From: Escherichia coli
Lineage (GTDB): Bacteria > Pseudomonadota > Gammaproteobacteria > Enterobacterales > Enterobacteriaceae
Assembly: GCF_009931435.1 (NCBI RefSeq)
Contig: NZ_CP043414.1
Length of the DNA: 64,000 nt
Reading direction: 5' to 3' (one strand)
In this document: one piece after another, positions 1-16,701 of the stretch
Numbering within the stretch: position 1 is the first letter of the stretch
Layout: each line of letters begins with the position of its first letter
Translations under genes and position numbers: made by a program
The notes under the pieces: generated by a model
Seen by the model: the letters and a program-made list of their open reading frames with translations, nothing else
Database searches by the model: none
Told to the model about the DNA's origin: nothing

Positions 1-3000
1 GCTGCTCCCAAAACGAACCCGTGGCGCACTGGCAGTAGTGTTGAACGCCCAGAGGGGGTCTTTGAATACCTCCATTCCATGCGCCGTGTTTTTACATAAC
101 GTAATGGCAGCAGATGCACTCTCTCCACGTCGACCCGCGCGGCCTGCACGCTGCAAATAATTTGCCGGAGCTGGAGGAACGTTGTTCATTGCCACCAAAC
201 TCATACCACCAATGTCCACCCCCATCTCCATGGTCGTGGAGCAGTTCAGCACATTAACTTTGCCTGACTTAAATTGTTTTTCATTAAACTGGTTCTGCTC
301 AGGCGTTCTCTGCGCAGAGTGTTCCTCCAGACGATACCAGCTATCTTTCAGGGCCAGTCGGTCGCTGCGAGTAGACCATAATCCTTCCTCGCGGGCATGT
401 TGAATCAGCGCATTACTTTCCAGCCACTCCAGACGTTCTTCTCGGGCGATTTCTCCACCACCAGACAAACGCCAGTGACGTACAGGAAGCTCAGGCATTT
501 CAATCAACACTGCTTTTTCAGGTGCAATTTCTTTGCTACCCGGCAAATACGGAGAGTATCCCAGTAACGTGACGTCTAACGCACGTCGAGTATAGGGGCA
601 ACGCCACACTTGCTTTGGACTGTAAAATTCAGCTTGTTGTTTAATATCCAGCTGATAACCCGACTCAAACTGACGTAAGCAGGGTCGAATTGCATCCCAG
701 ACCTCAATCATTAAGTGGTTAACTAACGATTTCCAGTGAGCCTGCTCAGGTTGTATTGCCGGAAAGACTGCAATTAATAGCTTAATGACCCGGTTATAAT
801 GGCGATCGCGTATTTGTGGCCAAAGTTGATCACGTTTCTGCCCTTTGTTTTTTTTATCTGGACCCTGCAGCATTTTTACCGGGAAACGAGCCCCCATCCA
901 GCGAGGGTATTGCTCGTTTTCGTAAAAAACGGCACTGTTTTCACGTATAAAGAAATCAAGAGTAATCTTCAATAAATTACGCCATTCCGCTAATTGCTTA
1001 TCGGGATCGGGTAATAATGTCTTCCAGTCCTGCGGGCAGGTTGTAACTTTATCAATAAATGGATAGTGAATGGCTACCAGACCCAGACTTTCGAGGGTCC
1101 AGGCATTTTTAGGGCGGCGACCAAACTCACTGTATAAACAAAAATCTGCAAACTGTTGTTTAGTAAGATCAAGCCCAGACAATTCTTTAAAACTGCCTCT
1201 CATTCTATCGGCAAGGTCCACACTGCCAACCAGCTGTTCAGACAGTGTTTGCCATGACATGGTTTTCTTCTGCTGATTGCCAGAGTTAGCCTGGAGTATT
1301 TGCATCGCTTCAGCATGATCCGGGCTTAAGGAACTCACCATCGGCTCGATAATTTTAAGTGCCTGAATGTCCGCCGGGCTAAGCTCTTCATTAGCAACCA
1401 TCGCTTTTTTCAGCGCGTCAATAGAGTTTTTTAAAGGAAGGATAGAAAACTGGGCAATAAAACTCTCTAACAATGCGCAGTGTGCCGGGCTGAGCTTTGC
1501 TGATGGCTCATTAATATTGGCCAGCTCCTGGTAGCAAAGAGCTCGCAACGTCGCTTTATCGGCATCCTGCTGTAAGCGGGCAGAAATGCGGGCAGTGCCC
1601 TGACGTGAATCCGTAAAGGTGAGCAGACGTCGACCATTAAACGGTCCTAACTGCTCTTCTCTTGTCTGCGGTAATGGTGAAAACTCCAGCAGAGTAGGAA
1701 TAATTTCATTTAAAAAAAAGGGCGCGCCAAGTCGAAGCGGACGGAATAAAGGATTATTTTTTCGTTGGGTGTCACCACAGCAAACACAAGCAAAGGAATT
1801 ATTACGTCCCTCACCTCGAGATTCCGGTCTTAACAGGTTTATTTCATAGTGCTTTTGCGCTTCACTATCAATTTTCCCCGCCGTCGTTTCTTCCAGTGAA
1901 ATGATATATTTTTCACCATCGCTCGCAATCAGACGATCAAATTGAGAGTTATTGTCTAATTCGTCGTTGTCTTCATCTTCAGAATAAACATCTACATCAA
2001 GAGCAAACTCATCCACTTCGGCAGCGGCGGGTTGCGCTACCAACCAGTTCGTTCCATCACCGCGCATCTCCTCTTTGGCAGACAAATAAGCTGAACCACA
2101 CCCGGAGCAACGTAAAACTTCAAATACCGGCGCACCACAGTCACAATATTGGCGCTGCTCAAACCATACCTGACCAAATGGCCAGTCACTCTGATTTAAT
2201 TCATGTGCTTTATGTGAGCATTGTTTGTTTGAACATGCCCATAGACCCGCCAGTGTTCTGATAAATCCATGCATACGTAATGGCGTAAAAGCCAGTTCAC
2301 CTTCTCGCGATCTTGCCATTAGATCGAGGAGTTGCAGTAGCTCACGGTGATTAATATCTGGCCAGGTTCTTCTGGCAACATTGAGCAACTCACTCAAACG
2401 TACTGCCTGCCGTCCGGGATGAGTTAACGCCTGACGCAATTGCTGGGCCACACGGTAATGACAAAGCTGTTGGTAAAGATCCTGAGGGCTCAGAGATTTA
2501 AGAGAAGTTAAAGATGTGGGGTATTCATGACGAATCAGCGACTCCGATACCCGCGGTATTTGTCGATAACCGCGAACCACTTTGACATCACGTTCTGTAA
2601 CGCCCGCGAGATCAGCGACAAATTTAGCAAGCTCCTTATTACCTTCAGGAGAGTCTTCACCAATAGTGGCAGAGGTCGCGATAATCTGCACAGGTTTATC
2701 TGTGCCGGGTCCAACATTGAAAGCCTGCATAACACGACGTAAAAGCAGCGCTAACTCAGCAGCCTGAGAACCAATATAACTATGGGCTTCATCCAGGACG
2801 ATATACTTTAACATCCCCTGAGACTTTTCGATGATTGGGGCATCTTTACGACGAATCAGCATATATTCCAGCATGGTGGTATTCGTCACCATGATGGAAG
2901 GTGGTGCTTCGTAAATGGCTTCCCGACTCAAAGCTTGTTCAGGTACTTTCAACTGATCTTCCTGAATTTCGTATTTGGTATGCCGGGTTTCGCCATTATA

Positions 3001-3543
3001 TAGCGCGAAGCGTATTTTCCCCTTAAATCCGCGCGTCCATTCGCGAAGCCGCTCCTGTTGACTGTTAATTAATGCATTTAACGGATACAAGAAAATAGCT
3101 TGTGTCCCTGTTAGTGACTGGCGGGTCGATTTTTGCTGACGAATAAGATCTTCCAGAACCGGTACCATAAAGCATTCTGTTTTCCCGGATCCCGTACCGC
3201 TGCTCACTAACAAGGATTTTTTGTCTTCCAGAATTGTTCGCCACGCAGTGAGTTGATGACGAAATGGCACTGGCGCTTTGCTCAATGCATCAACCAGCGG
3301 GCTGGAGATCAGCTTGTCCCGCAAATCCTCCATTGTTTCATCCGCAGGCATCCAGCCGAATGTACTTTCGAATACCGGGTCTGCAAGCAGTGACCCCTCC
3401 TGACCGGGAGGCTGAAAATATTGTGATTCCAGATAATGAGTCAACGACTTGCTCCGCAATGCCAACTGACTTACCACCGACCTCACCGCACGCTGATGAA
3501 GCTGATTTAGAAGTGGCGCATAATGCAGTTGCTGAACGTCCAT
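1..3543 (-). CDS. Large superfamily-2 DEAH helicase, C-terminus runs off the window (at least 1181 codons visible); candidate Druantia DruE-like
   Basis: Minus-strand frame appears uninterrupted from ATG at 3541-3543 to position 1 (checked by hand at several points; not in ORF track because no stop in window). Walker A SSGTGSGKT near 3179-3205, DEAH box VLDEAH at 2782-2799, motif V MEMGVDIGG near 205-231, motif VI QRAGRAGRRGE near 121-153. Cys clusters (FACVCCGD, CSNKQCSH, CDCGAPVFEVLRCSGCG) lie between about 1770 and 2260. Confidence 0.75.
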   Translation of the reverse strand, partial: MDVQQLHYAPLLNQLHQRAVRSVVSQLALRSKSLTHYLESQYFQPPGQEGSLLADPVFESTFGWMPADETMEDLRDKLISSPLVDALSKAPVPFRHQLTAWRTILEDKKSLLVSSGTGSGKTECFMVPVLEDLIRQQKSTRQSLTGTQAIFLYPLNALINSQQERLREWTRGFKGKIRFALYNGETRHTKYEIQEDQLKVPEQALSREAIYEAPPSIMVTNTTMLEYMLIRRKDAPIIEKSQGMLKYIVLDEAHSYIGSQAAELALLLRRVMQAFNVGPGTDKPVQIIATSATIGEDSPEGNKELAKFVADLAGVTERDVKVVRGYRQIPRVSESLIRHEYPTSLTSLKSLSPQDLYQQLCHYRVAQQLRQALTHPGRQAVRLSELLNVARRTWPDINHRELLQLLDLMARSREGELAFTPLRMHGFIRTLAGLWACSNKQCSHKAHELNQSDWPFGQVWFEQRQYCDCGAPVFEVLRCSGCGSAYLSAKEEMRGDGTNWLVAQPAAAEVDEFALDVDVYSEDEDNDELDNNSQFDRLIASDGEKYIISLEETTAGKIDSEAQKHYEINLLRPESRGEGRNNSFACVCCGDTQRKNNPLFRPLRLGAPFFLNEIIPTLLEFSPLPQTREEQLGPFNGRRLLTFTDSRQGTARISARLQQDADKATLRALCYQELANINEPSAKLSPAHCALLESFIAQFSILPLKNSIDALKKAMVANEELSPADIQALKIIEPMVSSLSPDHAEAMQILQANSGNQQKKTMSWQTLSEQLVGSVDLADRMRGSFKELSGLDLTKQQFADFCLYSEFGRRPKNAWTLESLGLVAIHYPFIDKVTTCPQDWKTLLPDPDKQLAEWRNLLKITLDFFIRENSAVFYENEQYPRWMGARFPVKMLQGPDKKNKGQKRDQLWPQIRDRHYNRVIKLLIAVFPAIQPEQAHWKSLVNHLMIEVWDAIRPCLRQFESGYQLDIKQQAEFYSPKQVWRCPYTRRALDVTLLGYSPYLPGSKEIAPEKAVLIEMPELPVRHWRLSGGGEIAREERLEWLESNALIQHAREEGLWSTRSDRLALKDSWYRLEEHSAQRTPEQNQFNEKQFKSGKVNVLNCSTTMEMGVDIGGMSLVAMNNVPPAPANYLQRAGRAGRRGESASAAITLCKNTAHGMEVFKDPLWAFNTTASAPRVRFGSS

Positions 3544-6500
3544 CAATGACATACTCCTGCTTGTTCAAAATAATATTGATAGATTACCCCTAATTGCTGT
3601 GGGGCTTGCTGATAGTGAAATTCAAAAAGCGCAGACAGTTGATGTATCAGGTTATTATCTTTTTGGGTTAACAGCGCTGCGACTAACATCAAATTAAAAC
3701 GTTTTTCAAGCCGTGAGTGATATTTATCTTCAATCCAAAGCTTATTAAAAACAGATTTTAACTCTGGAGTAATAGCACTAGACCAAAGTTCTTTAGGGAA
3801 GATACTGATACGCCCAAAGCTGTCGGGGTTCCTTAATAGCATCTGTTTAGCTTCATTAAACTGCTCACGACTAACAGTTGGCAATACATCACAACCGGTT
3901 GGTAGGCTCTCACTATATGTAAGTAACATATTCGCAATGGGAGCCAGCCGACGATCGATATGTGCACGATGGTTCATAAAAGCAATAAAGGGTTGCAATA
4001 TATGTAATGCTAATGTTTTATCGTTAATCTGTTTTTCCAGATAAGTCCAACATTTTTGGAAAACATCTTTCCAGATTGAAACGGGAATCCATCCCCATGA
4101 AAAGGGTAATTCTTCCTGTATATCATAAATCGTATCGCTATCACCAGAAAGACATGATGATATTAACAATTGAACAACCACGCGGTAATTACTCGAAATA
4201 CCTCTGAACAAGTCCAGATCCAGCAAGGATAAGCCATTATTCATTTTGTACTTCTTAATATACTCTGTTAATAAACAGCAATAATTTTGCAATGGGTTGT
4301 TATCTATTTCAAAAATTAGCTCATTAAAATTTTTTTTGCGCTGTTCTGGGTCTGCTTCGCATAGAGCATTTAGTAATAAATCATTTGTCTGCAATACAGG
4401 TAGCATCCATTTAATTACTGGTGCAATGCGAGCTGTACCATCAAGTTTTCCCACAATTAACCATGGACTATCCTGAACATTCAGAGCTGAAAGATCATAA
4501 GCAAATTCATCTTTTTTTAGCAATGATTTGTGTAAGCCAGGATCCTTAAGAGAAATAGCATCAACAACCAGTTCGTCTATTCTATTTGCAGGAAAAACAA
4601 CAGAATTTTTTATATCAACCAGCAACCCTTGATCGTGTTCAATAAAACTACCATCGTAGCGTTTAATATTGAGTGTTGCTTTATCCTTTCCAAATCTGTC
4701 AGAGTAAAAATCAACACATAATGTACTATTGCTGTTCCATGCACATGCCAGCATAGCATTTAGCAAATTATAGTTCTCATAAAGTGAAATTTGTTGTAAT
4801 TTGTCATTGCGTCCTGATAAAAGAGGAAGGTCGGCATGTAAATAACGGAATTTTTCAGCTACTGGATTTTCATCCAATAACTCGATATTAAGATATCCTC
4901 TTCCAGCACATGATATGGTTAATAACTCAGCATCTATTCCATGCAAATGTGCTATAGATGCCACACCATCAAAATGAACAGAACCATCATTAGTTACAAA
5001 TCGGCCACCGCTAACCGGCTTAGGTAATAATAGTTTAAGATTAGAACCATCTTTCCAGGAGACCCGTAAATCAACGGTATTTTCCAGCATCTGCGATGAA
5101 TTATAATAAATAGCACACTCGTTTTGTGAATAATCGGACTTAAGTGTTACTTTTTCATTGTTTGAATATTTATCAATTCTAGTATCCGTTATACCAGAAA
5201 GCATAATAATGCCTTGCTGAGCACTCTCAGGTATAATATTAATATCGAAGTCTGCTGGTAAAACTACAACTTTACCGCTAAATAAAACCTCATCATTAAC
5301 TATTCGCCGGACTTCTATCTGTCCTTTTGGCATTTCTGATGCGACAGAATACCAGGCATTGTTACCTGAACGAATGGAACGCCAAAAAAGTTCTTTCTCC
5401 GGTACAATGCCATATTGCAGATCCTTTTTCCAACCGATCTTCGGCCAGGCTCGATGGACAGGATAATCCGATTTAACCAGTTCAACTTCTGTCGATTTAA
5501 TATAATATTCAATCGCAGAATCATAAAGTTGCTGGGTGCGAATTGTACAAACAGCACCATCATGTAAAACAACGCTAAATACTCCACTTATTTTAGTTAA
5601 GCTGCGTTCACTGTTTTTCAGCAACCTTGGGATATCAAACTCACCTTCTCCACTAATATCTAAATGGCTATTTTTCGGTAGCGAAATAAACAGAGCATTT
5701 AGCCTGGAACTCACAGACCCCATACCGACAAGTTTTAGCTGCGATTCACTCTCATTCATCGCTTCAAAAACCCAGGGGAGTTCTTCAGTAAGTTCATAAC
5801 CGCCTTTTGGAATTGTGTGGCCTAACAGAATTGGACCTTCATGAAGCGACAACGAGATTTCGGCCATTGCATCTGCACCAGAGAGCTTTTGCATCGCAAT
5901 AGGTAATAACTCGACCCGCCAATCTTGCTGCTCATAACGGCTTAGCATTGCCAACCTTGCCCCGCCATTTCTCCATTTTCCTGAAATGATGAGTCGGGTC
6001 TGCTCCGGCTGAATATGGCATTCAAACAAAGAGGTTAACTGTTCTGTACGCATTGTGGCCGGGAATCGGAACCGGGCATCACAATACCAACTGTCATCAA
6101 CATCGACCCAGATTCTTTCAACCTGAAGACTACTTGCACTGCGTATTTCAGAAGATTGAGAAAGTAATCGCCTTACAATCTCTGCAGCATTCGCTTCGGG
6201 GAGAACGAGTGGAAGTTGAAGATGCCAGTCTGGAGAGAGCTTACGTAATGCAGAAACGGGATCACTGCTTTGAGGTGGATGCTCACTAAGTAATCGGCAG
6301 AGAGTCTCGCAGAATTCACCGGCTATTTCATAGACCAGTTCGTTTTGCATTGTGACAGGAATCGTATCGCCTAATTCTTGTGCAATTTTAGCGGCAGGAT
6401 ATTGAGATGCTTGCCCACGAAGCGCCTGATATATCCTTCTGAAATAGGTAATCAAATAACCGCTCTCATTTTCAATCATGCGGATAGGTAAACCACCTTC

Positions 6501-6902
6501 ACAAGCCAGTGTATGCAGATAACCCGAAGCTTGCCCCAGGTTTCTTATCTTTCTTTTCCAGTAGCGAATGCCATCATTAACCAGCTTCTGTCGATGAACA
6601 TACGGAACTTTCCAGTCAATAGAATCTAAAATTGTGTCCCATTTAGGGTGTCCGACCGTATGAGTCCGGCGGATAAACTCTGCGGCATATATGCTAAATA
6701 GAACATCGCTATAGGAAATGAATATCGTTCTTGGATAACTACGAGGGGCATATGTACGCAGTAGTTCTGCCAAACTTTCGTACTCTGTATCAGTACAACG
6801 GTAAGCATATAACGCCCGTCCATCAGCTCCGGATAATGAACGGCGACTAAAAAACATGTTAAGCCATTGCAAAAGTGGGTTAACTGGAGTTTTCACAAGC
6901 AA
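3543..6902 (-). CDS. Hypothetical 1119-aa protein, no recognisable motifs; upstream partner of the helicase (candidate DruH-like)
   Basis: Single long ORF in track; AT-rich; its TGA stop overlaps the helicase ATG (ATGA at 3541-3545), implying translational coupling. Confidence 0.6.
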   Translation of the reverse strand: MLVKTPVNPLLQWLNMFFSRRSLSGADGRALYAYRCTDTEYESLAELLRTYAPRSYPRTIFISYSDVLFSIYAAEFIRRTHTVGHPKWDTILDSIDWKVPYVHRQKLVNDGIRYWKRKIRNLGQASGYLHTLACEGGLPIRMIENESGYLITYFRRIYQALRGQASQYPAAKIAQELGDTIPVTMQNELVYEIAGEFCETLCRLLSEHPPQSSDPVSALRKLSPDWHLQLPLVLPEANAAEIVRRLLSQSSEIRSASSLQVERIWVDVDDSWYCDARFRFPATMRTEQLTSLFECHIQPEQTRLIISGKWRNGGARLAMLSRYEQQDWRVELLPIAMQKLSGADAMAEISLSLHEGPILLGHTIPKGGYELTEELPWVFEAMNESESQLKLVGMGSVSSRLNALFISLPKNSHLDISGEGEFDIPRLLKNSERSLTKISGVFSVVLHDGAVCTIRTQQLYDSAIEYYIKSTEVELVKSDYPVHRAWPKIGWKKDLQYGIVPEKELFWRSIRSGNNAWYSVASEMPKGQIEVRRIVNDEVLFSGKVVVLPADFDINIIPESAQQGIIMLSGITDTRIDKYSNNEKVTLKSDYSQNECAIYYNSSQMLENTVDLRVSWKDGSNLKLLLPKPVSGGRFVTNDGSVHFDGVASIAHLHGIDAELLTISCAGRGYLNIELLDENPVAEKFRYLHADLPLLSGRNDKLQQISLYENYNLLNAMLACAWNSNSTLCVDFYSDRFGKDKATLNIKRYDGSFIEHDQGLLVDIKNSVVFPANRIDELVVDAISLKDPGLHKSLLKKDEFAYDLSALNVQDSPWLIVGKLDGTARIAPVIKWMLPVLQTNDLLLNALCEADPEQRKKNFNELIFEIDNNPLQNYCCLLTEYIKKYKMNNGLSLLDLDLFRGISSNYRVVVQLLISSCLSGDSDTIYDIQEELPFSWGWIPVSIWKDVFQKCWTYLEKQINDKTLALHILQPFIAFMNHRAHIDRRLAPIANMLLTYSESLPTGCDVLPTVSREQFNEAKQMLLRNPDSFGRISIFPKELWSSAITPELKSVFNKLWIEDKYHSRLEKRFNLMLVAALLTQKDNNLIHQLSALFEFHYQQAPQQLGVIYQYYFEQAGVCH

Positions 6903-7113
6903 CCTGCCTTCCTTTGATACAATTCGTAACAGGTTACTATCATCATAAAAAAGCTCAACCCGATGAACTCGCTAAAAATGAGACAAATCATTTATATCTC
7001 GAAAAAACTTGTTACAATCATGAGCGCTACACCGAACTTAACCATATAAATTATGTGCGTTTTGTTTATTTTTTAAACAATTACAACTATCCATTATTTA
7101 CACAGGTATCAAA

Positions 7114-8766
7114 ATGTTAGCGCAGCTTTTTGAGCAGTTGTTTCAATCGATAGACTCTACACTGATCACCAATATTTTCATCTGGGCTGTTATATTCGTA
7201 TTTTTATCAGCGTGGTGGTGTGACAAAAAAAATATACATAGTAAGTTTAGAGAATATGCTCCAACCTTAATGGGGGCATTAGGTATTCTGGGTACTTTCA
7301 TTGGTATTATTATTGGGTTACTCAATTTTAATACTGAAAGTATTGATACCAGCATCCCCGTATTATTAGGCGGCCTAAAAACAGCATTCATTACAAGCAT
7401 TGTAGGTATGTTTTTTGCCATTTTATTTAATGGAATGGATGCTTTCTTTTTTGCCAATAAACGAAGTGCGTTAGCAGAAAATAACCCTGAATCTGTTACA
7501 CCTGAACATATCTATCATGAATTAAAAGAGCAGAACCAGACTCTGACTAAATTAGTCTTGGGTATTAACGGTGATAGTGAAGGTTCTCTTATTGCTCAAA
7601 TAAAATTACTACGTACTGAGATTAGCGATTCCTCGCAGGCACAATTAGCTAATCACACTCATTTCAGTAATAAGCTTTGGGAACAACTTGAACAATTTGC
7701 AGATCTAATGGCAAAAGGTGCTACAGAACAAATTATTGATGCTTTACGACAAGTCATTATTGATTTTAATGAAAATTTAACTGAACAGTTTGGTGAAAAC
7801 TTTAAAGCACTTGATGCCTCTGTAAAAAAACTTGTTGAGTGGCAGGAAAATTATAAAACGCAAGTTGAGCTGATGTCAGAACAATATCAACAAAGTGTCG
7901 AGTCTCTGGTTGAAACAAAAACTGCGGTTGCCGGGATTTGGGAAGAATGTAAAGAAATTCCTCTGGCTATGTCTGAACTGCGTGAAGTGCTTCAGGTGAA
8001 CCAACATCAAATCAGCGAACTCTCCCGCCATTTAGAAACCTTTGTCGCTATCCGCGATAAAGCTACAACCGTATTACCTGAAATACAGAACAAAATGGCT
8101 GAAGTGGGTGAACTGCTGAAATCCGGAGCTGCAAATGTTAGTGCATCTCTTGAGCAAACCAGCCAGCAAATACTTCTTAATGCAGATTCAATGCGCGTGG
8201 CCCTGGATGAAGGTACCGAAGGATTCAGACAATCGGTTACCCAAACACAACAAGCATTTGCCTCGATGGCACATGATGTCAGCAATTCCTCCGAAACTCT
8301 AACCAGCACGTTAGGTGAAACAATTACTGAAATGAAACAAAGTGGTGAAGAATTCCTGAAGTCACTAGAGTCGCACTCGAAAGAATTGCATAGAAATATG
8401 GAACAAAATACGACTAATGTAATTGATATGTTCAGTAAGACTGGTGAAAAGATTAACCATCAACTATCCAGTAATGCCGATAATATGTTTGATTCAATCC
8501 AGACATCATTTGATAAGGCAAGTGCAGGGCTGACTTCTCAAGTCAGAGAATCAATTGAAAAATTTGCTCTATCCATCAACGAGCAGTTACATGCTTTTGA
8601 GCAAGCAACTGAACGTGAGATGAACCGTGAAATGCAATCATTAGGTAATGCTCTGCTTTCAATCAGCAAAGGTTTTGTCGGTAACTATGAAAAACTTATT
8701 AAAGATTACCAAATAATTATGGGACAGTTACAAGCATTAATTTCTGCTAATAAACATCGAGGGTAA
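7114..8766 (+). CDS. zorA: MotA/ExbB/TolQ-like membrane protein with long coiled-coil tail; ZorA-like (Zorya)
   Basis: Three N-terminal hydrophobic helices (LITNIFIWAVIFVFLSAWW, LMGALGILGTFIGIIIGLL, IPVLLGGLKTAFITSIVGMFFAILF) followed by about 440 aa of Q/E/L-rich heptad-like sequence; first gene of a three-gene operon. Confidence 0.65.
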   Translation: MLAQLFEQLFQSIDSTLITNIFIWAVIFVFLSAWWCDKKNIHSKFREYAPTLMGALGILGTFIGIIIGLLNFNTESIDTSIPVLLGGLKTAFITSIVGMFFAILFNGMDAFFFANKRSALAENNPESVTPEHIYHELKEQNQTLTKLVLGINGDSEGSLIAQIKLLRTEISDSSQAQLANHTHFSNKLWEQLEQFADLMAKGATEQIIDALRQVIIDFNENLTEQFGENFKALDASVKKLVEWQENYKTQVELMSEQYQQSVESLVETKTAVAGIWEECKEIPLAMSELREVLQVNQHQISELSRHLETFVAIRDKATTVLPEIQNKMAEVGELLKSGAANVSASLEQTSQQILLNADSMRVALDEGTEGFRQSVTQTQQAFASMAHDVSNSSETLTSTLGETITEMKQSGEEFLKSLESHSKELHRNMEQNTTNVIDMFSKTGEKINHQLSSNADNMFDSIQTSFDKASAGLTSQVRESIEKFALSINEQLHAFEQATEREMNREMQSLGNALLSISKGFVGNYEKLIKDYQIIMGQLQALISANKHRG

Positions 8767-8772
8767 TCGATC

Positions 8773-9480
8773 ATGGATAAGATTATAGGGAAACAATTAC
8801 CTAAAAAAGATCAAGATAATGAACACTGGGTATCCATGTCAGACCTAATGGCAGGGCTGATGATGGTTTTTATGTTCATATCTATTGCTTATATGCACTA
8901 CGTACGTATTGAAAAAGAAAAAATTAAAGAAGTTGCCGTAGCCTACGAGAATGCTCAGTTACAGCTTTATAATGCTCTGGATATTGAGTTTGCAAAGGAT
9001 TTACAAGACTGGGATGCAGAGATCGATAAACAGACTCTGGAGGTTCGATTTAAATCACCGGATGTTTTATTTGGCTTAGGAAGCACAGAGCTAAAACCAA
9101 AGTTTAAACTCATTCTTGACGACTTCTTTCCTCGCTACCTAAAAGTTCTAGATAATTATCAGGACCATATTACTGAAGTCCGCATTGAAGGTCACACAAG
9201 TACTGACTGGACAGGAACAACGAATCCTGATATTGCTTATTTTAATAATATGGCACTATCACAAGGTCGTACACGTGCAGTATTACAATACGTTTATGAC
9301 ATAAAAAATATCGCGACACACCAACAATGGGTTAAAAGTAAATTTGCCGCAGTAGGTTATTCATCTGCACATCCCATTCTTGATAAAACCGGCAAGGAGG
9401 ATCCTAATCGCTCTCGTCGTGTCACCTTCAAAGTTGTAACAAATGCCGAATTGCAGATTAGAAAGATTATTCAGGAGTAA
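8773..9480 (+). CDS. zorB: MotB/OmpA-like peptidoglycan-anchoring protein; ZorB-like
   Basis: N-terminal TM segment (LMAGLMMVFMFISIAYM) and C-terminal OmpA/MotB-like region (NMALSQGRTRAVLQYV, NRSRRVTF); starts 6 nt after zorA stop. Confidence 0.65.
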   Translation: MDKIIGKQLPKKDQDNEHWVSMSDLMAGLMMVFMFISIAYMHYVRIEKEKIKEVAVAYENAQLQLYNALDIEFAKDLQDWDAEIDKQTLEVRFKSPDVLFGLGSTELKPKFKLILDDFFPRYLKVLDNYQDHITEVRIEGHTSTDWTGTTNPDIAYFNNMALSQGRTRAVLQYVYDIKNIATHQQWVKSKFAAVGYSSAHPILDKTGKEDPNRSRRVTFKVVTNAELQIRKIIQE

Positions 9481-9483
9481 GAG

Positions 9484-10587
9484 ATGAAATTATCTATCGA
9501 CATTTCAGAACTTATTCAATTAGGGAAGAAAATGTTACCAGAAGGAGTCGATTTTTTTCTGGATGAATCCCCTATTGACTTTGATCCTATAGATATTGAG
9601 TTATCCACGGGTAAAGAAGTTAGTATCGAAGATCTTGACCCTGGTAGCGGGCTTATCTCTTATCATGGCCGCCAGGTTCTTTTATATATTCGGGACCATT
9701 CAGGGCGTTATGATGCGGCTATCGTAGATGGCGAAAAAGGAAAACGTTTTCATATTGCCTGGTGCAGAACTCTTGATGAAATGCGCCATAAAAATCGATT
9801 TGAAAGGTATCATGCAACTAACCGCATAGATGGTTTATTCGAAATTGATGATGGTTCAGGTCGGAGCCAGGATGTTGATTTACGGGTATGTATGAATTGC
9901 CTCGAACGACTTAATTATAAAGGAAGTATTGATAAACAACGAAAAAGAGAGATTTTTAAATCATTCTCATTAAATGAGTTTTTTTCAGATTATAGTACCT
10001 GTTTTCGTCATATGCCTAAGGGTATCTATGACAAAACAAATAGTGGGTATGTCGAAAACTGGAAAGATATATCTAAATCAATACGAGAAAAGGCAAATTA
10101 TGTTTGTAATGATTGTGGCGTGAATTTATCAACCGCCAAAAACTTGTGCCATGTCCATCATAAAAATGGCATCAAATATGATAATCACCATGAAAACCTT
10201 CTTGTTCTGTGCAAGGATTGCCATCGAAAACAGCCCCTCCACGAAGGTATATTCGTTACCCAAGCTGAGATGGCTATCATTCAACGTTTACGTTCCCAAC
10301 AAGGGTTATTAAAAGCAGAATCCTGGAATGAAATATATGACCTGACTGATCCATCAGTGCATGGTGATATTAATATGATGCAACATAAAGGCTTTCAACC
10401 TCCTGTTCCTGGGTTAGATCTTCAAAACTCAGAACATGAAATTATTGCAACCGTAGAAGCTGCATGGCCAGGCCTTAAAATTGCAGTTAACCTTACTCCC
10501 GCCGAAGTCGAAGGATGGAGAATATATACCGTGGGTGAGCTGGTTAAAGAAATACAAACAGGAGCCTTTACGTCAGCAACGTTGTAA
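9484..10587 (+). CDS. zorE: HNH endonuclease-domain protein; ZorE-like (Zorya type II effector)
   Basis: C-terminal HNH signature CNDCGVNLSTAKNLCHVHHKNG...NHHENLLVLCKDCH; starts 3 nt after zorB stop. Confidence 0.6.
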   Translation: MKLSIDISELIQLGKKMLPEGVDFFLDESPIDFDPIDIELSTGKEVSIEDLDPGSGLISYHGRQVLLYIRDHSGRYDAAIVDGEKGKRFHIAWCRTLDEMRHKNRFERYHATNRIDGLFEIDDGSGRSQDVDLRVCMNCLERLNYKGSIDKQRKREIFKSFSLNEFFSDYSTCFRHMPKGIYDKTNSGYVENWKDISKSIREKANYVCNDCGVNLSTAKNLCHVHHKNGIKYDNHHENLLVLCKDCHRKQPLHEGIFVTQAEMAIIQRLRSQQGLLKAESWNEIYDLTDPSVHGDINMMQHKGFQPPVPGLDLQNSEHEIIATVEAAWPGLKIAVNLTPAEVEGWRIYTVGELVKEIQTGAFTSATL

Positions 10588-10597
10588 ATTCCGAAAC

Positions 10598-10623
10598 TCC
10601 GTGAAAGTTAAGACTTTCACGGA
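10598..10623 (+). other. 11-bp stem hairpin just after zorE stop (terminator-like, no U-tract)
   Basis: tccgtgaaagt-taag-actttcacgga. Confidence 0.35.
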
Positions 10624-10796
10624 AGATAAATAAAATTCTCCTGATTTGTGACTCAAATTATAAAAGTCGTTTATGGCATAACTTGTCTGTTTTTTTGGTG
10701 TAATAGGTATAAAGGCATATGCTATGGTTAGCCTTATATTTAAAACTTTCCTCATACGGGTGAAGGTTAAAGCTTGGTAGATAGGTTACAGTCACA

Positions 10797-11406
10797 ATGA
10801 ATAAAGCAATAACGGTGCTTGCTATAATGATGGCTTCATTTTCCGTAAATGCGTATGTATTACCGGAAACGCCTGTGCCATTTAAAAGTGGTACCGGAGC
10901 AATTGATAACAACACTGTCTACATTGGTTTAGGTAGCGCAGGTACGGCATGGTACAAGCTGGAGAAACAGACCAAAGATAAAAAAATGGACAGCGTTAGC
11001 TGCATTTCCTGGTGGACCGAGAGATCAAGCAACTTCTGCATTTATTGATGGCAATCTGTATGTGTTTGACGGCATTGGCAAAAACAGTGAGGGCTTGACT
11101 CAGGTATTTAATGACGTTCACAAATACAACCTCAAAACCAATAGCTGGGTTAAATTGATGTCGCACGCGCCGATGGGCATGGCGGGTCATGTGACATTTG
11201 TACACAACGGCAAGGCTTATGTTACTGGCGGTGTTAACCAGAATATCTTCAATGGCTATTTTGAAGATCTTAACGAAGCTGGAAAAGATTCAGCGTACCG
11301 GTCACCGGAGAACTGGATGACGGTACTGCGAAGCAGTCATTTCAGTCGGGGGATGATTGTAGACAAATTTGTTGACGCTATTTTGCGGTTTTGGCGTGAA
11401 GGGTGA
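10797..11406 (+). pseudogene. nanM: N-acetylneuraminate epimerase (nanM/yjhT) N-terminal fragment, frameshifted and truncated
   Basis: ORFs 10797-11048 and 11062-11406 together carry the NanM signal peptide and first Kelch-like repeats (MNKAITVLAIMMASFSVNAYVLPETPVPFKSGTGAIDNNTVYIGLGSAGTAWYKL; FDGIGKNSEGLTQVFNDVHKYNLKTNSWVKLMSHAPMGMAGHVTFVHNGKAYVTGGVNQNIFNGYFEDLNEAGKD) but are split by a frameshift and end far short of the full-length protein. Confidence 0.6.
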
Positions 11407-11413
11407 GCGTTCA

Positions 11414-12064
11414 TTAATTTGATTTATTTGCATCCATCAACGCTTTTAACTGCTCCGGCGAAAACGGTGGTTTGCGTCGGTGCAACATCGCATGGCAATT
11501 AGGGCACACAGGAAGCAAATCATTAACTGGATCCAGCTGGTAATTCTCTTTAATGGCTGAAAGCGGCACCAGGTGATGCACATGGATAAAGCCTTCAGCG
11601 ATATCACCATAGATCTTCACCAGATCAACGCCGCATACGTTGCACTGGCATCCATGATGTTCGACCGCTTTATCTCGGGCCTTTTTATCGCGTTCATAGC
11701 GGTTTACTGTCACCTTTATCGCCGCACCTTCAACGTATGTCTCCTGCGACGGCAACTCATCCGGGAACAGAACGTCGGCTATGGGAGCCGCAGCGGCTTT
11801 ATCCTGATGAATATGAAATCCCTGCTCTATGAGTAGTTTGACGCATTTAGATTTTATTCCGCCGGTGAAATCCGCAGGGGTAAATTGCGTCCCCGTCATC
11901 AATGTCGCTGCGATGCCAGCAATCGCCTTCGAGGGGTAACGTCGGCCATGATATTCAATCTCATACAACCGCGCAGGCTGGAACTGATGAGTTTCTCCCG
12001 CATCCCATAAATGGATAGCTTCGATGATATACCGCCGCGGAAGATGATCAGGGAGTTTATTCAT
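11414..12064 (-). CDS. HNH endonuclease with about 140-aa N-terminal domain of unknown function
   Basis: C-terminal HHGCQCNVCG...HVHHLVPLS...NDLLPVCPNCHAMLH (zinc-finger HNH); N-terminal region has no motif I recognise. Confidence 0.7.
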   Translation of the reverse strand: MNKLPDHLPRRYIIEAIHLWDAGETHQFQPARLYEIEYHGRRYPSKAIAGIAATLMTGTQFTPADFTGGIKSKCVKLLIEQGFHIHQDKAAAAPIADVLFPDELPSQETYVEGAAIKVTVNRYERDKKARDKAVEHHGCQCNVCGVDLVKIYGDIAEGFIHVHHLVPLSAIKENYQLDPVNDLLPVCPNCHAMLHRRKPPFSPEQLKALMDANKSN

Positions 12065-12143
12065 GGAGAATGTCCTTATACGTTCTCAGAACAGGCAGCA
12101 AAAAAACAAATGAGATCAAGGTAATATATCTTCACTTGCAGGC

Positions 12144-13073
12144 TTGAACAGCAGAAAATTTGCGAGCATGATCGCAATTATTTCACTGCCAGGGATATCA
12201 ATGGCTTCCAGTAAATCGCTACAGCAGGCAATTGCCAATATAAAAATCTGGCACAAGGGTGAACAGCGCGCGCCGCATAAGCCATTGTTATTGCTATACG
12301 TATTAGCGGGATACCTGAATGGACATCCGCGCCTTTTCGATTATGGCTCGGAAATCTACGAACCTCTGCACAGTTTACTGGAACGTTTTGGGCCACAGCG
12401 TTCACAGTACCGACCTGATATGCCGTTCTGGCGATTACAAGGCGACGGATTCTGGCAATTACACAATGCCGAACTTTGCTCAACAGCAGGGAGTAGCCGA
12501 CAACCGCCAGTGAAGGAACTGACCGAACACCGCGTTGCAGGCGGTTTCGATGAACAGCACTATGCCCTGGTAATCGGCAATAAAAAACTCATCAATACCC
12601 TGGCGCAACAGATACTCGAAGCGCACTTCACCGAGAGCATTCAGGAAGAAATTGCTGACGAGCTGGGTTTTGATCTCCAGCAAATCCGTAAACAGCGCGA
12701 CCCGTTATTTCGCAAACTTGTATTGCGCGCATATAACTACCAGTGCGCGATATGTGGCTTTAATATGCGCCACGATGACACCACCGTCGCACTGGAAGCA
12801 GCGCATATAAAATGGAAACAGCACGGCGGTCCTTGTGAAATTCCTAATGGCCTGGCGCTTTGTGCAATACACCATAAAGCCTTTGATAAAGGATCGATTG
12901 GCCTGGATGAAAATATGCGGGTACTGGTCTCGGATGCGGTAAACGGCGGAGGGATCGTTGAGAAACTATTCTGGGATTTTGACGGGAAAACTATTGCGTT
13001 ACCACAGGTGCGTAAAAATTACCCTTTTGAGGGGTTTGTGGAGTGGCATCGAAAAGAGGTTTTTAGGGGGTGA
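12144..13073 (+). CDS. HNH endonuclease with about 190-aa N-terminal domain of unknown function (start may be a downstream Met, e.g. 12201)
   Basis: HNH signature CAICGF...AAHIKWKQHGGP...NGLALCAIHHKAFDKG; divergent from the 216-aa HNH gene across a 79-bp spacer. Confidence 0.7.
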   Translation: MNSRKFASMIAIISLPGISMASSKSLQQAIANIKIWHKGEQRAPHKPLLLLYVLAGYLNGHPRLFDYGSEIYEPLHSLLERFGPQRSQYRPDMPFWRLQGDGFWQLHNAELCSTAGSSRQPPVKELTEHRVAGGFDEQHYALVIGNKKLINTLAQQILEAHFTESIQEEIADELGFDLQQIRKQRDPLFRKLVLRAYNYQCAICGFNMRHDDTTVALEAAHIKWKQHGGPCEIPNGLALCAIHHKAFDKGSIGLDENMRVLVSDAVNGGGIVEKLFWDFDGKTIALPQVRKNYPFEGFVEWHRKEVFRG

Positions 13074-13114
13074 GGTTGATAACTATCGCAGTATGTTCAA
13101 TATTGCTGACATAA

Positions 13115-13297
13115 TCAGTGCAGGATCTTGCCGCTAGTTTACAACTCGCCTTCGATAGCGGCGCAAAACGAGTTCTGTTGCCGATATCCTCGGCTATGGA
13201 TATTCCAACAGTTCCGGCAGAGTTGTTTACCAAGTTTCAGGTAAGTTTTTACTCAGAACCGGTTGATGCGGTTTATAAGGCGCTGGATGTGAATTAA
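13115..13297 (+). pseudogene. C-terminal remnant of a Lon-like protease gene (possibly BrxL-like), no start codon
   Basis: Open frame with no Met translates to SVQDLAASLQLAFDSGAKRVLLPISSAMDIPTVPAELFTKFQVSFYSEPVDAVYKALDVN, resembling the extreme C-terminus of Lon-family proteases (compare Lon AAHRGGIKTVLIPFENKRDLEEIP...). Confidence 0.4.
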
Positions 13298-13628
13298 CAC
13301 ATTCCTCAGCTTATTTACAAAAGGATTATTCCCATTTGATATAATATCAGTGCCAATTTACTTTTTTCAATGGAATATATCTCGGCTAAATAACAATAAA
13401 ACTTATCGCTAATGGATTAAATAAACAATTTTCTAATTTATTTCACCACCTTTGATATAGAAATTGATGGTGTTGTCGCTGCCATTGCTTATGGTGATGA
13501 TAAAATCCACGTTTCTGGATCGGTGCGTAGAAAATCATCACTTCCTTGATATTTTGATGCGATATGATCATACCGTTCCGTAGTACCAATTTCAACTTCA
13601 GGCTAAACCCCAACATTAAAAAAATTAG

Positions 13629-13672
13629 AGTTATTCACTGATTATATTATCAATAATATAATCAGTGAATAA
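13629..13672 (-). terminator. Perfect 20-bp inverted repeat immediately downstream of the 682-aa gene, followed on the minus strand by a T-run; likely intrinsic terminator
   Basis: gttattcactgattatatta / tcaa / taatataatcagtgaataac; minus-strand downstream sequence ctctaatttttttaatg. Confidence 0.5.
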
Positions 13673-13695
13673 CATGGACTATATAATAAATTGCT

Positions 13696-15744
13696 CTAAT
13701 CATTTCCCTTACGAATATATGGGCCAAAAGCCCAAGAATCATAATAAGGGTGATGGACTAATTTTTCATTAAATCGAACACTATAAGTTAATTTTTTTAT
13801 ATTTTTACGTACAGCATTAATACTGGGCAAAGAGGAAAGATAATCTATAAACTTATCGATAGTGATTTTCCCTTCGCAACACTCAAACCCATCAATGATA
13901 TTTTTCGCCATTTTTCCATTTTCATTTGTTTGATATATCACTCCAGGTATTCGTTGAAAAAAACTAGATAATGCATATTTGTCCGCTACATATGTATCAT
14001 CCACATGATATTTCCCACCGAGCATAGTTGTAGTAACAATAAGCTTATACACACCTTTGGGTTGCCATGTTGATGGTAGTTCGAATTCTTTAATGATCAC
14101 ATCAAGATGATTAAGATAATGTTCAGAAATTCGATTTATTTGTTGAAAATAAGAACGCATAAATTTATTATTATGATCATGTATTAATGAGCTATCTCCA
14201 ACGATGTTACACACTTGCTGATAGTACTTACCATAATATATTGGTTGACCATTTGATTTTAGTTCTGTAAAAATCAAACAATCATCCAGGAGAATCACGC
14301 AATCGCACTGATAATTAGCATGAGCATCAATTGGAGAAGCTTTAATCCCCGCATCACGAACTTGTTTTATAAATTGTTGCTCATGAAATCGCCCTTTACT
14401 TGCTTGAGAAATTTTTTTGGAACCAAATAATGACATTAGAGAGCGAGTCACTGAGCTATTTGCTATTAATGCAGGCATTAAGCATAAACCGTCCATACAG
14501 GGAATAAATGGGCAATCATTAAGATCATGTGATTTTGAATTGAAGGTAAAATAATCTATCAGTTTTTTTGCTGCATCTGCTGCAATCCCCTTACGTTGAA
14601 AGAATGATAACCAACTCTCACGGCTTTTTATGACCAGCCAGCGATCCAACTGTAGGGGTATAGGTTTTGTCGATGAAAATCTTTTGCTCATTTCTTCTTT
14701 AGATAACTCGACTAAACATTGATAAGCGTGCACCCAATTAAATAATGATATATTCCCATATTCTTCATGAAGGTCATCAGGAGACATATTTTCCAACTCG
14801 CTTAAATGAAATGAGCTAAAAACGCCATCAGAATTTAAGTAAGATGGCATATGATCCTTTACCCAACTATTTAGATGAAAATGTTTGTTACTAAATTCAT
14901 GAACTTCGCTATATAGATGTGACGCTCTCATCATTAGTCTATTTCTTGCAATCTCATAATCTCGGTATAAACAAAAACTATCAACCTCAAGAGAGTAAAT
15001 GTTATTATCCAATTTTGTAAATACTGCACTACTTAGTCTGAAAAAGTCTCTTACTCTGCTTAATGAGTCAAAAACATTCCACTCATTAAGGTACCCTCCC
15101 ATTGAAAGCAAGGTTTGTTTATTCACACAAGAAGTTAGTTTCAATGGCCCATGAGTCCGTAAATAAGAAAATATTCTTCCGGTGTAATTGGCTACCTCAT
15201 CAAATGCCCTATCGATAACTCGAAAATATTCGATATCAGGTTCAGCATGAATATTAATATTTTCAGAAACGATAAATAATGGAAAAATCCTCTTCATTTT
15301 TTTAGGATCATTGACCACAACCAAGGATGATAATGATGATAAAAACATCTCACAAAACATGATGAGATTAAGTATTAATGCATGTGATTTTTTTGTATTT
15401 TTACGCCAAATACCAGCACATTTTGCAGCCCCAAAGAAAGAATTATTTATATCATGCATAATTTTACATTGACTCTCGAACTCAGAGATTAGTTCAATGT
15501 TATCAGGAAATGAGTTTACTAGCTCATTAATACATTTTTTGAATGTATTGTTATACTCAACTTCAGTCTGAACTGAAAATCTATTATAATAGATGGAAGA
15601 TATTCTCAGCACATCCAAGGCGATATCTATACTAATATCATCTCTTTTTATGTACTCACAAAAAAAAGAACAAAACTGTTTCGGGTCGTTAGCAAGATTA
15701 CTAATTCTAGTGGTATCATAAACTTTTTCCATTTTTCCATACAT
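13696..15744 (-). CDS. Hypothetical 682-aa protein, very AT-rich, no confident domain assignment
   Basis: Single long ORF flanked by more than 600 bp of AT-rich non-coding DNA on each side; possible PD-(D/E)xK-like motif CDCVILLDDCLIFTELK in the C-terminal third (weak). Confidence 0.6.
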   Translation of the reverse strand: MYGKMEKVYDTTRISNLANDPKQFCSFFCEYIKRDDISIDIALDVLRISSIYYNRFSVQTEVEYNNTFKKCINELVNSFPDNIELISEFESQCKIMHDINNSFFGAAKCAGIWRKNTKKSHALILNLIMFCEMFLSSLSSLVVVNDPKKMKRIFPLFIVSENINIHAEPDIEYFRVIDRAFDEVANYTGRIFSYLRTHGPLKLTSCVNKQTLLSMGGYLNEWNVFDSLSRVRDFFRLSSAVFTKLDNNIYSLEVDSFCLYRDYEIARNRLMMRASHLYSEVHEFSNKHFHLNSWVKDHMPSYLNSDGVFSSFHLSELENMSPDDLHEEYGNISLFNWVHAYQCLVELSKEEMSKRFSSTKPIPLQLDRWLVIKSRESWLSFFQRKGIAADAAKKLIDYFTFNSKSHDLNDCPFIPCMDGLCLMPALIANSSVTRSLMSLFGSKKISQASKGRFHEQQFIKQVRDAGIKASPIDAHANYQCDCVILLDDCLIFTELKSNGQPIYYGKYYQQVCNIVGDSSLIHDHNNKFMRSYFQQINRISEHYLNHLDVIIKEFELPSTWQPKGVYKLIVTTTMLGGKYHVDDTYVADKYALSSFFQRIPGVIYQTNENGKMAKNIIDGFECCEGKITIDKFIDYLSSLPSINAVRKNIKKLTYSVRFNEKLVHHPYYDSWAFGPYIRKGND

Positions 15745-16421
15745 CCTATTGTCTAAATTACTATAAAATTAGCCACTTAACTAATAATTATAAATTTCAT
15801 CTTTTGCACCTTGCATTTTTATAACCAATGAAATCTACAACAAGCAACTGATGGATAATCCGATATTGGTCGCATTTAATGGCATGGTAGCAAAGTTTTC
15901 ATCACATACCTCCTTTGCACCAGAATAAACGCCAGAGACCTGAAATTGCGAGTACACTACAGAAATTGTACTGCCGGTCCCATCAGCATAAAACCATAGT
16001 TACACAGGTAATCATCATTATTCACCAAGATAATAAATATTATTCGGTAGAATAGCGTTCTCAGGTGGTCAGTAAAATTGTCTTCAACAAGATGTCTGCG
16101 CATCTCGTCTGCTAGCCCTACATAACTGCTCTCGACCGAAACTATTTATTGAATGTTCACCAAGGTGGGCGTGGAGACAAAATGACGTCTTTTGATATTA
16201 GCTACCTGAGCCACATGGTCAAAACGTTCAAGTAGCATAGCGAAACCACCCTGCCCACGTAATGTGGACGATGCAGCTTCCAGCCAGAGCAAACTTGGGA
16301 CCATCGACTACCAAATGAAGAATACTGAACTGCTTTTCTGGCAGGCCTATATACTGCACGGATATGGGTGATTTCAGACACAAAAAAAGCCGCTCTTGAG
16401 CGACTCGATTTGCATACGGTG

Positions 16422-16506
16422 TGGTGCCGAAGGCCGGACTCGAACCGGCACGTATTTCTACGGTTGATTTTGAATCAACTGCGTCTACCGATTTCGCCAC
16501 TTCGGC
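16422..16506 (-). tRNA. leuX: tRNA-Leu (anticodon CAA), leuX
   Basis: Minus-strand sequence GCCGAAGTGGCGAAATCGGTAGACGCAGTTGATTCAAAATCAACCGTAGAAATACGTGCCGGTTCGAGTCCGGCCTTCGGCACCA, with T-loop GGTTCGAGTCC and 3' CCA; matches recalled leuX. Confidence 0.9.
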
Positions 16507-16701
16507 ACTGAAGAGGTATGCGGAAAACGTTGTGGATTATACCTGTCACGCGCCACCATGCAAGCGCCAGCTTGCTCGCACCTCGCTAAGTGCTGAAATT
16601 TTCAGCATTGCATTCCGCGATGTGTAACCTTTGTCACACTCCAGGCACCCCGCCCTACCATGCTCTACACTTCCCAGACAACACCAGAGAAGGACAAAAA
16701 T

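Follow-up and report, generated by a model that had tools for sequence, protein, structure and literature searches.

Rho-independent terminators are stem-loops that stand soon after a stop codon and are followed by a T-run on one strand, the transcribed one. Each of them is polar and unique in sequence, and the sequence is not conserved between orthologues. Their stems are ~5–12 bp long and GC-rich, and the U-tract lies 0–2 nt off the stem. Long or palindromic elements 3' of genes are also known from other systems: sib/tI of phage lambda is a long, RNase III-sensitive 3'-UTR hairpin downstream of int, the attC site of integrons is a palindrome just 3' of a single, promoter-distal gene at a locus that swaps its cargo and bears GTT/AAC heptamers, and the REP/BIME, ERIC/IRU and MITE repeats are palindromic, intergenic and often located 3' of genes, where they stabilise mRNA.

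The window studied here (the whole stretch of 64,000 nucleotides) is the part of the Escherichia coli chromosome around the tRNA-Leu(CAA) gene leuX, with a defence island to the left of leuX, and in this island a perfect palindrome adjoins a gene for a 682-aa protein. The palindrome shares with Rho-independent terminators the stem-loop soon after the stop codon, the T-run on the transcribed strand only, the single polarity, the unique sequence and the absence of conservation between orthologues, whereas its stem is 20–21 bp long with 19% GC, its U-tract is displaced by 5 nt and its tail score is 2.23 as against ~4 for bona fide terminators in the window. Like lambda sib/tI, it is a long 3'-UTR hairpin of a gene on horizontally acquired DNA, and by analogy it may, like sib/tI, act either as a terminator or as an RNase III site depending on the context; however, the two have no sequence similarity, and neither an antitermination system nor an alternative upstream promoter is known here. 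The location and the GTT/AAC heptamers are reminiscent of attC, but the order of the heptamers differs and the palindrome is without an unpaired central spacer, an IntI gene, an array or a second copy. Unlike REP/BIME, ERIC/IRU and MITE elements, which are multi-copy (REP being GC-rich), the palindrome is single-copy and AT-rich and has no match in Rfam. With moderate confidence, we take it to be a unidirectional and non-canonical intrinsic terminator, or a 3'-end hairpin, of the 682-aa gene, brought in together with this AT-rich gene.

Structure and position of the palindrome

The features around the 3' end of the 682-aa gene are as follows.

13618–13624, minus strand: T7 run (A7 on the plus strand), 5 nt past the stem, spacer TCTAA
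13630..13673, minus strand: perfect palindrome; in minus-strand RNA a 20-bp AU-rich stem with a 4-nt loop
13674..13695, minus strand: spacer of 22 nt between stop codon and hairpin, within which, at 13678, nucleotide homology to Salmonella ends
13696..15744, minus strand: 682-aa ORF, low GC (33%, or 33–35%), orphan; the gene that the hairpin would terminate

By a repeat search, two arms of 21 nt each (13630–13650 and 13653–13673) were found to be 100% complementary to each other and separated by the 2-nt sequence CA, so that the palindrome reads GTTATTCACTGATTATATTAT-CA-ATAATATAATCAGTGAATAAC. The preliminary description had placed a perfect 20-bp inverted repeat at 13629–13672; its perfection holds, while the coordinates were one base off and the arms one pair short. 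For RNA of either strand, the predicted fold is a stem of 20 bp closed by a 4-nt loop, with the isolated hairpin accounting for −23.2 kcal/mol; with DNA parameters the fold amounted to −16.3 kcal/mol per strand. When a context of 101 nt was folded and compared with shuffled sequences, z was −4.8 for the minus strand and −5.8 for the plus strand; all 200 shuffles folded less well. A search of the 64-kb window for the arm sequence with up to 3 mismatches returned the two arms only (0 expected from 100 shuffles), and the second-longest perfect hairpin arm in the window was 13 nt. The palindrome is therefore real, with a length far beyond chance. Its arms have a GC content of 19% (a fraction of 0.19), corresponding to 4 G-C pairs in the 20–21-pair stem.

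The palindrome lies 22 nt 3' of the stop codon (13696–13698) of the minus-strand ORF 13696–15744, downstream of the 682-aa gene as originally described. Past the palindrome the minus strand reads TCTAATTTTTTTAATG, and the tail of the hairpin is TCTAATTTTTTT, in which the T7 run (13618–13624) begins 5 nt after the stem; the T-run noted earlier on the minus strand is thus in place.

Terminator-like properties of the hairpin

Both the anatomy and the orientation of the hairpin can be observed directly. No intact gene other than the 682-aa ORF points at it, and the T7 run follows the stem on the strand of this gene and not on the other, so that the element is polar. Since a one-off AT-rich hairpin, 22 bases past the stop codon, is combined with a T-run, it is most likely the own terminator of the 682-aa gene. 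The hairpin passed a simple terminator scan with 20 pairs, 4 GC pairs, a 4-nt loop and a tail conforming to the 5-T-in-8 rule. A/T homopolymer runs of at least 7 nt occur in this segment at 2.65 per kb; from this density, we estimated that a correctly oriented run would fall no further than ~10 nt from the stem in ~1% of cases.

The hairpin is nevertheless non-canonical, as the preliminary description had rightly sensed in calling the stem unusually long and perfect for a terminator: the stem is roughly double the usual length, GC makes up 19% of the arms, and 5 nt lie between stem and U-tract. Intrinsic terminators have a G+C-rich stem of moderate length, which the palindrome does not have; they also have a stem-loop shortly past the stop codon on the coding strand, which the palindrome does have. 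The tail score of the d'Aubenton-Carafa type was 2.23 for the hairpin, as compared with 4.27 for the leuX terminator and 3.84 for the valS terminator of the same window, and the d-score, calculated by hand, was negative. The suggestion of an intrinsic terminator stands as the best reading with regard to placement, the side of the T-run and the result of the scan, but not with regard to tail strength, which is low.

From this arrangement we infer that the hairpin terminates transcription or stabilises the mRNA, and the following course of events would be expected. Transcripts of the minus strand would fold into the 20-bp AU-rich stem-loop 22 nt past the stop codon, and RNA polymerase would next meet UCUAAUUUUUUU. 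Because the spacer bases are UCUAA, the RNA:DNA hybrid 7–9 nt past the stem would still consist almost entirely of weak rU:dA and rA:dT pairs, and from such a weak hybrid partial termination and protection of the mRNA 3' end are expected. The outcome would be a unidirectional, probably partial, Rho-independent termination, and the 3' hairpin would shield the mRNA from 3' exonucleases. The hairpin would have arrived as a part of the AT-rich single-gene cargo that extends from 13582 to ~16374 in the leuX defence hotspot.

Distribution and variation of the palindrome

Among 5,426 complete E. coli genomes, 339 contained the palindrome, always at one chromosomal locus and adjoining the 682-aa gene (the second 'place' recorded in each genome is the self-match of the palindrome on the opposite strand). 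Carriers include UTI89, NU14 and the O145:H28 strain RM12581. At least 80% of the region 13100–15800 was present in 333 E. coli genomes; the agreement between the 339 carriers of the palindrome and the 333 carriers of the region shows that palindrome and gene travel together. A scan for the 20-nt arm in 100,044 species-representative genomes gave three loci, namely one contig with the E. coli locus and, in AT-rich MAGs, two solitary arms that lack a partner. The contig in question, SFGN01000178.1 (4.2 kb, from a 'Lachnospiraceae bacterium' MAG), is 99% identical to window positions 12246–16439 and almost certainly comes from E. coli through mis-binning. In IMG/VR, four contigs carried the palindrome, all of them representing the same E. 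coli locus (97.5–99% identity), and plasmid and phage collections yielded short chance matches only and no further copy. The largest group among these, 765 plasmid matches, is a chance identity of 20 nt inside tetC of Tn10. The preliminary description had suggested looking for the same palindrome at other island boundaries; a single locus was found throughout E. coli, species genomes, IMG/VR, plasmids and phages. Searching 13000–16600 against Rfam 15 (E ≤ 1) gave the leuX tRNA as the sole match and none for the palindrome, with the entries of REP and ERIC type included in the search.

The 48-nt core of the palindrome was identical in 317 of the 339 E. coli copies. The core variants examined were uncompensated single substitutions (G>T in 32F4 and A>T in PapRG-04-4). 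In addition, a 5-nt unit ATTAT in the left arm (13641–13650) was tandemly duplicated in a few genomes, with 6 of the 339 copies at 90–95% identity, and the T-run at 13618–13624 varied in length from 6 to 9 across E. coli genomes and was AATAAAA in one strain; the changes in T-run length and the ATTAT duplication look like slippage events. Because the locus is ~99% identical among carriers, it is too young and uniform for a covariation test to be informative. Population variation speaks neither for nor against selection on pairing, and there is no sign of such selection.

This uniformity bears on the possibility that the palindrome is functionless, having been made perfect by template switching, quasipalindrome correction or an inverted micro-duplication at the time of joining and having been kept simply as the locus is young. 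At ~99% identity among carriers no selection is needed to account for the perfection, the variants examined are uncompensated and include the slippage-type ATTAT duplications, a recombination junction is only 48 nt away, orthologues do without the palindrome and the quality of the hairpin as a terminator is marginal. Against this, a correctly oriented T7 next to the stem at the position of a terminator would have to be a coincidence (~1% by the above estimate), and no imperfect precursor or second copy of an arm was found in the window, the species genomes or IMG/VR. We consider a functionless palindrome to be unlikely, while giving it appreciable weight.

Orthologous loci in other genera

The family of the 682-aa protein is very small. 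It comprises the E. coli protein, a Salmonella protein of 75% identity and relatives of 41–56% identity in Izhakiella, Xenorhabdus, Pectobacterium, Pantoea and one metagenomic contig. Seven homologues from six genera were examined, and the palindrome was present in none of them; it was absent from the 3' flanks of the Salmonella, Pectobacterium, Xenorhabdus, Izhakiella and Pantoea homologues. Between E. coli and Salmonella, nucleotide homology runs from window position 15726 to 13678, i.e. over the ORF only, and stops 5 nt before the palindrome. The Pectobacterium homologue has an unrelated terminator-like hairpin on the same strand ~100 nt past its stop codon, with a similarly displaced T-run (AGATTTTTAG), and a simple scan of the Salmonella and Xenorhabdus orthologues detected no terminator-like site on the same strand in the equivalent place. 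The preliminary description had counted absence of the palindrome from homologous islands, together with read-through of transcripts, against its own proposal, and in other genera the palindrome is indeed missing. Unrelated 3' flanks on homologues are what is expected for fast-evolving terminators.

Several other features of these loci were seen. The Xenorhabdus and Pectobacterium homologues have a common conserved 3' flank, TAATATTCG... (L009 6044–6130 and L010 6056–6150), which contains an imperfect hairpin TTTAGTC...GACTAAA ~30 nt past the stop codon, unrelated to the E. coli palindrome. The Salmonella homologue sits inside an integrative conjugative element. In the protein cluster of 2,989 sequences, most Salmonella members are partial and located at contig ends, which means that draft assemblies often break inside the AT-rich gene.

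The 682-aa protein

The start of the ORF that is backed by homologues and by RefSeq is the ATG at 15732, which gives a probable length of 678 aa. No family was found for the 682-aa protein in Pfam or NCBIfam, and PADLOC returned a weak match to PDC-M29B (aa 466–515, E = 0.0014); neither a curated family nor a known defence-system model was matched. When seven homologues were compared, a C-D-C...D...E-L-K-S-N-G block was invariant in all seven, and single members of the family showed weak matches to DUF4143 and NERD. By its sequence, this block suggests a PD-(D/E)xK or NERD-like nuclease motif. The AlphaFold model of the protein was poor (pLDDT 56), a Foldseek search against the PDB gave nothing significant (best E = 0.23; the weak list includes McrC, Hjc and Can2-type nucleases), and a sequence-profile search of the PDB gave no match. 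The gene is a plausible, as yet unproven, candidate for a new single-gene defence nuclease of an Enterobacterales-only family. Nothing marks the protein as a recombinase needing a DNA site.

A nuclease-like motif in the adjoining gene raises the question of whether the hairpin limits the expression of a potentially toxic nuclease as an RNase III processing or retroregulation element in the style of lambda sib/int. Being a perfect stem of ~20 bp without G-C-rich antideterminants, it would be a substrate of RNase III in the 3' UTR. The 20-bp perfect dsRNA stem found here exceeds what terminators need and, going by established knowledge of lambda sib, may resemble the latter. On the other hand, the hairpin matches no Rfam family and is not conserved in orthologues, and processing by RNase III is compatible with termination and not exclusive of it. 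Such a role appears improbable. We regard it as more doubtful still that the palindrome is a dedicated cis element, be it an RNase III-dependent 3' retroregulator or a cruciform DNA site recognised by the nuclease; if it were true, a retroregulator would keep a toxic defence nuclease low until infection.

We give very little credence to a protein-binding DNA site (an operator or cruciform to which a host regulator or the nuclease-like protein would bind) or a symmetric divergent promoter. The dyad symmetry is perfect, a promoter-like TTCACT-17-TATAAT match is present inside the palindrome on both strands, the AT-rich centre would extrude easily at −16.3 kcal/mol per strand, and the Hjc, McrC and Can2-type nucleases appear in the weak fold-search list. 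However, the number of promoter-like matches in this AT-rich region is what chance would give (19 found vs 17.5 expected), and a promoter was dropped; the palindrome stands 3' of a gene and not at its promoter; no regulator gene is present in the cargo; arms of 21 bp are far longer than those of known operators; no match of the fold search is significant (E > 0.2), and the model used for it is poor (pLDDT 56); and the orthologues are without the palindrome. A LexA box (CTG-N10-CAA, with the wrong half-site) and a Fur box (with hexamers out of register) were dropped by eye.

Cargo and junctions of the leuX island

The locus anchored at leuX is named 'hotspot #37' of E. coli defence islands in a passage of PMC12707154 that cites PMC10121019. 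The hotspot takes up the left quarter of the window (1–16506), where the following features make up the island.

ends 6902, minus strand: Druantia-III DruE/DruH (DruH3)
7114–10587: Zorya-II ZorA2/B2/E
11414–12064: HNH endonuclease
12144–13073: restriction endonuclease (HNH), described as binding phosphorothioated DNA
13118..13297, plus strand: 3' remnant of brxL, matching TIGR02653 positions 617–675
13398..13581, plus strand: 5' fragment (~185 nt) of a phospholipase-D-like (PLD-like) gene that is intact after brxL in strain FT130
13582..13629, minus strand: remaining 3' flank brought with the 682-aa gene, from the end of the PLD-fragment homology to the palindrome
16422..16506, minus strand: tRNA-Leu(CAA) leuX, the anchor of the island, with a flank common to K-12-like strains from ~16370

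Window positions 13118–13581 are ~85% identical to strain FT130, which has an intact BREX system with brxL followed by the PLD-like gene, and after 13581 the homology is lost. By sequence comparison, the true cargo junction is at ~13581/13582, 48 nt from the palindrome and not at the palindrome. Strain VCSW7 matches the window up to the brxL stop codon (13298) and again from 16375, with a type II R-M system in between; these matches, together with the flank common to K-12-like strains, define the variable slot as 13299–16374. Within the slot, the AT-rich single-gene cargo occupies 13582–16374, and the palindrome is inside this cargo. No integrase or transposase was found in the cargo. A 57-aa ORF on the minus strand (13443–13616) is regarded as spurious: it has no family match, lies on the strand opposite the PLD fragment, extends across the junction and is unannotated in RefSeq.

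The earlier proposal of a protein-binding palindrome or recombination site at a boundary is not sustained, as the palindrome is single-copy, has no partner repeat, lies 48 nt from the junction and is absent in orthologues. That it is a recombination site or the end of a mobile element at the cargo boundary (attC, Xer/dif, att, collapsed TIRs or an IS circle junction) is extremely unlikely: although it lies in a hypervariable slot (13299–16374) whose cargo is swapped in other strains such as VCSW7 with its type II R-M system, is 48 nt from a junction and has outer heptamers GTTATTC/GAATAAC vaguely like integron core sites, it is single-copy across the 5,426 E. coli genomes, the 100,044 species genomes, IMG/VR, plasmids and phages, no copy of an arm with up to 3 mismatches exists elsewhere in the window, no common word of at least 10 nt is shared in either orientation by 13500–13700 and 15700–16560 as the att repeats of a tRNA island would be, the junction is not at the palindrome, nothing of the kind stands at the left junction of the VCSW7 cargo, and no recombinase is encoded, integrase and transposase being absent from the cargo.

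Particular site types were compared with the palindrome individually and rejected. For attC, the palindrome presents GTTATTC...GAATAAC on both strands as against RYYYAAC...GTTRRRY, so that the order is reversed and 2 of 7 positions fail in each heptamer; moreover, its stem pairs throughout, extrahelical bases being absent, and the island has no integrase and no second attC-like palindrome. For Xer/dif, a 2-nt centre with 21-nt arms stands against ~11-bp arms and a centre of 6–8 bp (11-6-11). For a terminal inverted repeat, MITE or IS end, there were no other arm copies and no distant partner arm.

These results fix the 3' end of a rare, uncharacterised candidate defence gene in leuX, the busiest defence hotspot of E. 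coli, as well as the cargo junctions at 13298/13299, ~13581/13582 and ~16374/16375, and they remove the recombination site at the cargo boundary as a tempting but wrong lead. The segment 13582–16374 covers the 682-aa gene with its native 3' hairpin and can be taken for anti-phage cloning. The palindrome itself is an ordinary feature, probably a further instance of the intrinsic-terminator kind, and matters little on its own.

Some minor observations were made in the same region. Downstream of zorE, 10 nt past its stop codon, a hairpin with perfect 11-nt arms, TCCGTGAAAGT-TAAG-ACTTTCACGGA (10598–10623), is present with no T-run after it. BREX is decayed here to the 3' remnant of brxL and the 5' fragment of the PLD-like gene, and no integrase is left beside the leuX tRNA. 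In VCSW7, the slot (L025 4200–7794) contains a C5-cytosine methyltransferase, an NmeDI-like restriction enzyme and a transposase pseudogene. At the Salmonella locus, an unrelated inverted repeat with perfect 20-nt arms around a 9-nt loop (L013 8237–8285) directly adjoins the stop codon of a YebC-like gene in convergent orientation, and on the plus strand a T-run stands before it; horizontally acquired DNA thus offers a second example of a very long, perfect and AT-rich palindrome 3' of a gene. Several genomes and 'viral' contigs of IMG/VR lose their homology to the window at 16445, so that it takes in the 24 nt at the leuX 3' end (16422–16445), which look like an att repeat; in the strains concerned, a further island is apparently integrated between the module and the intact tRNA.
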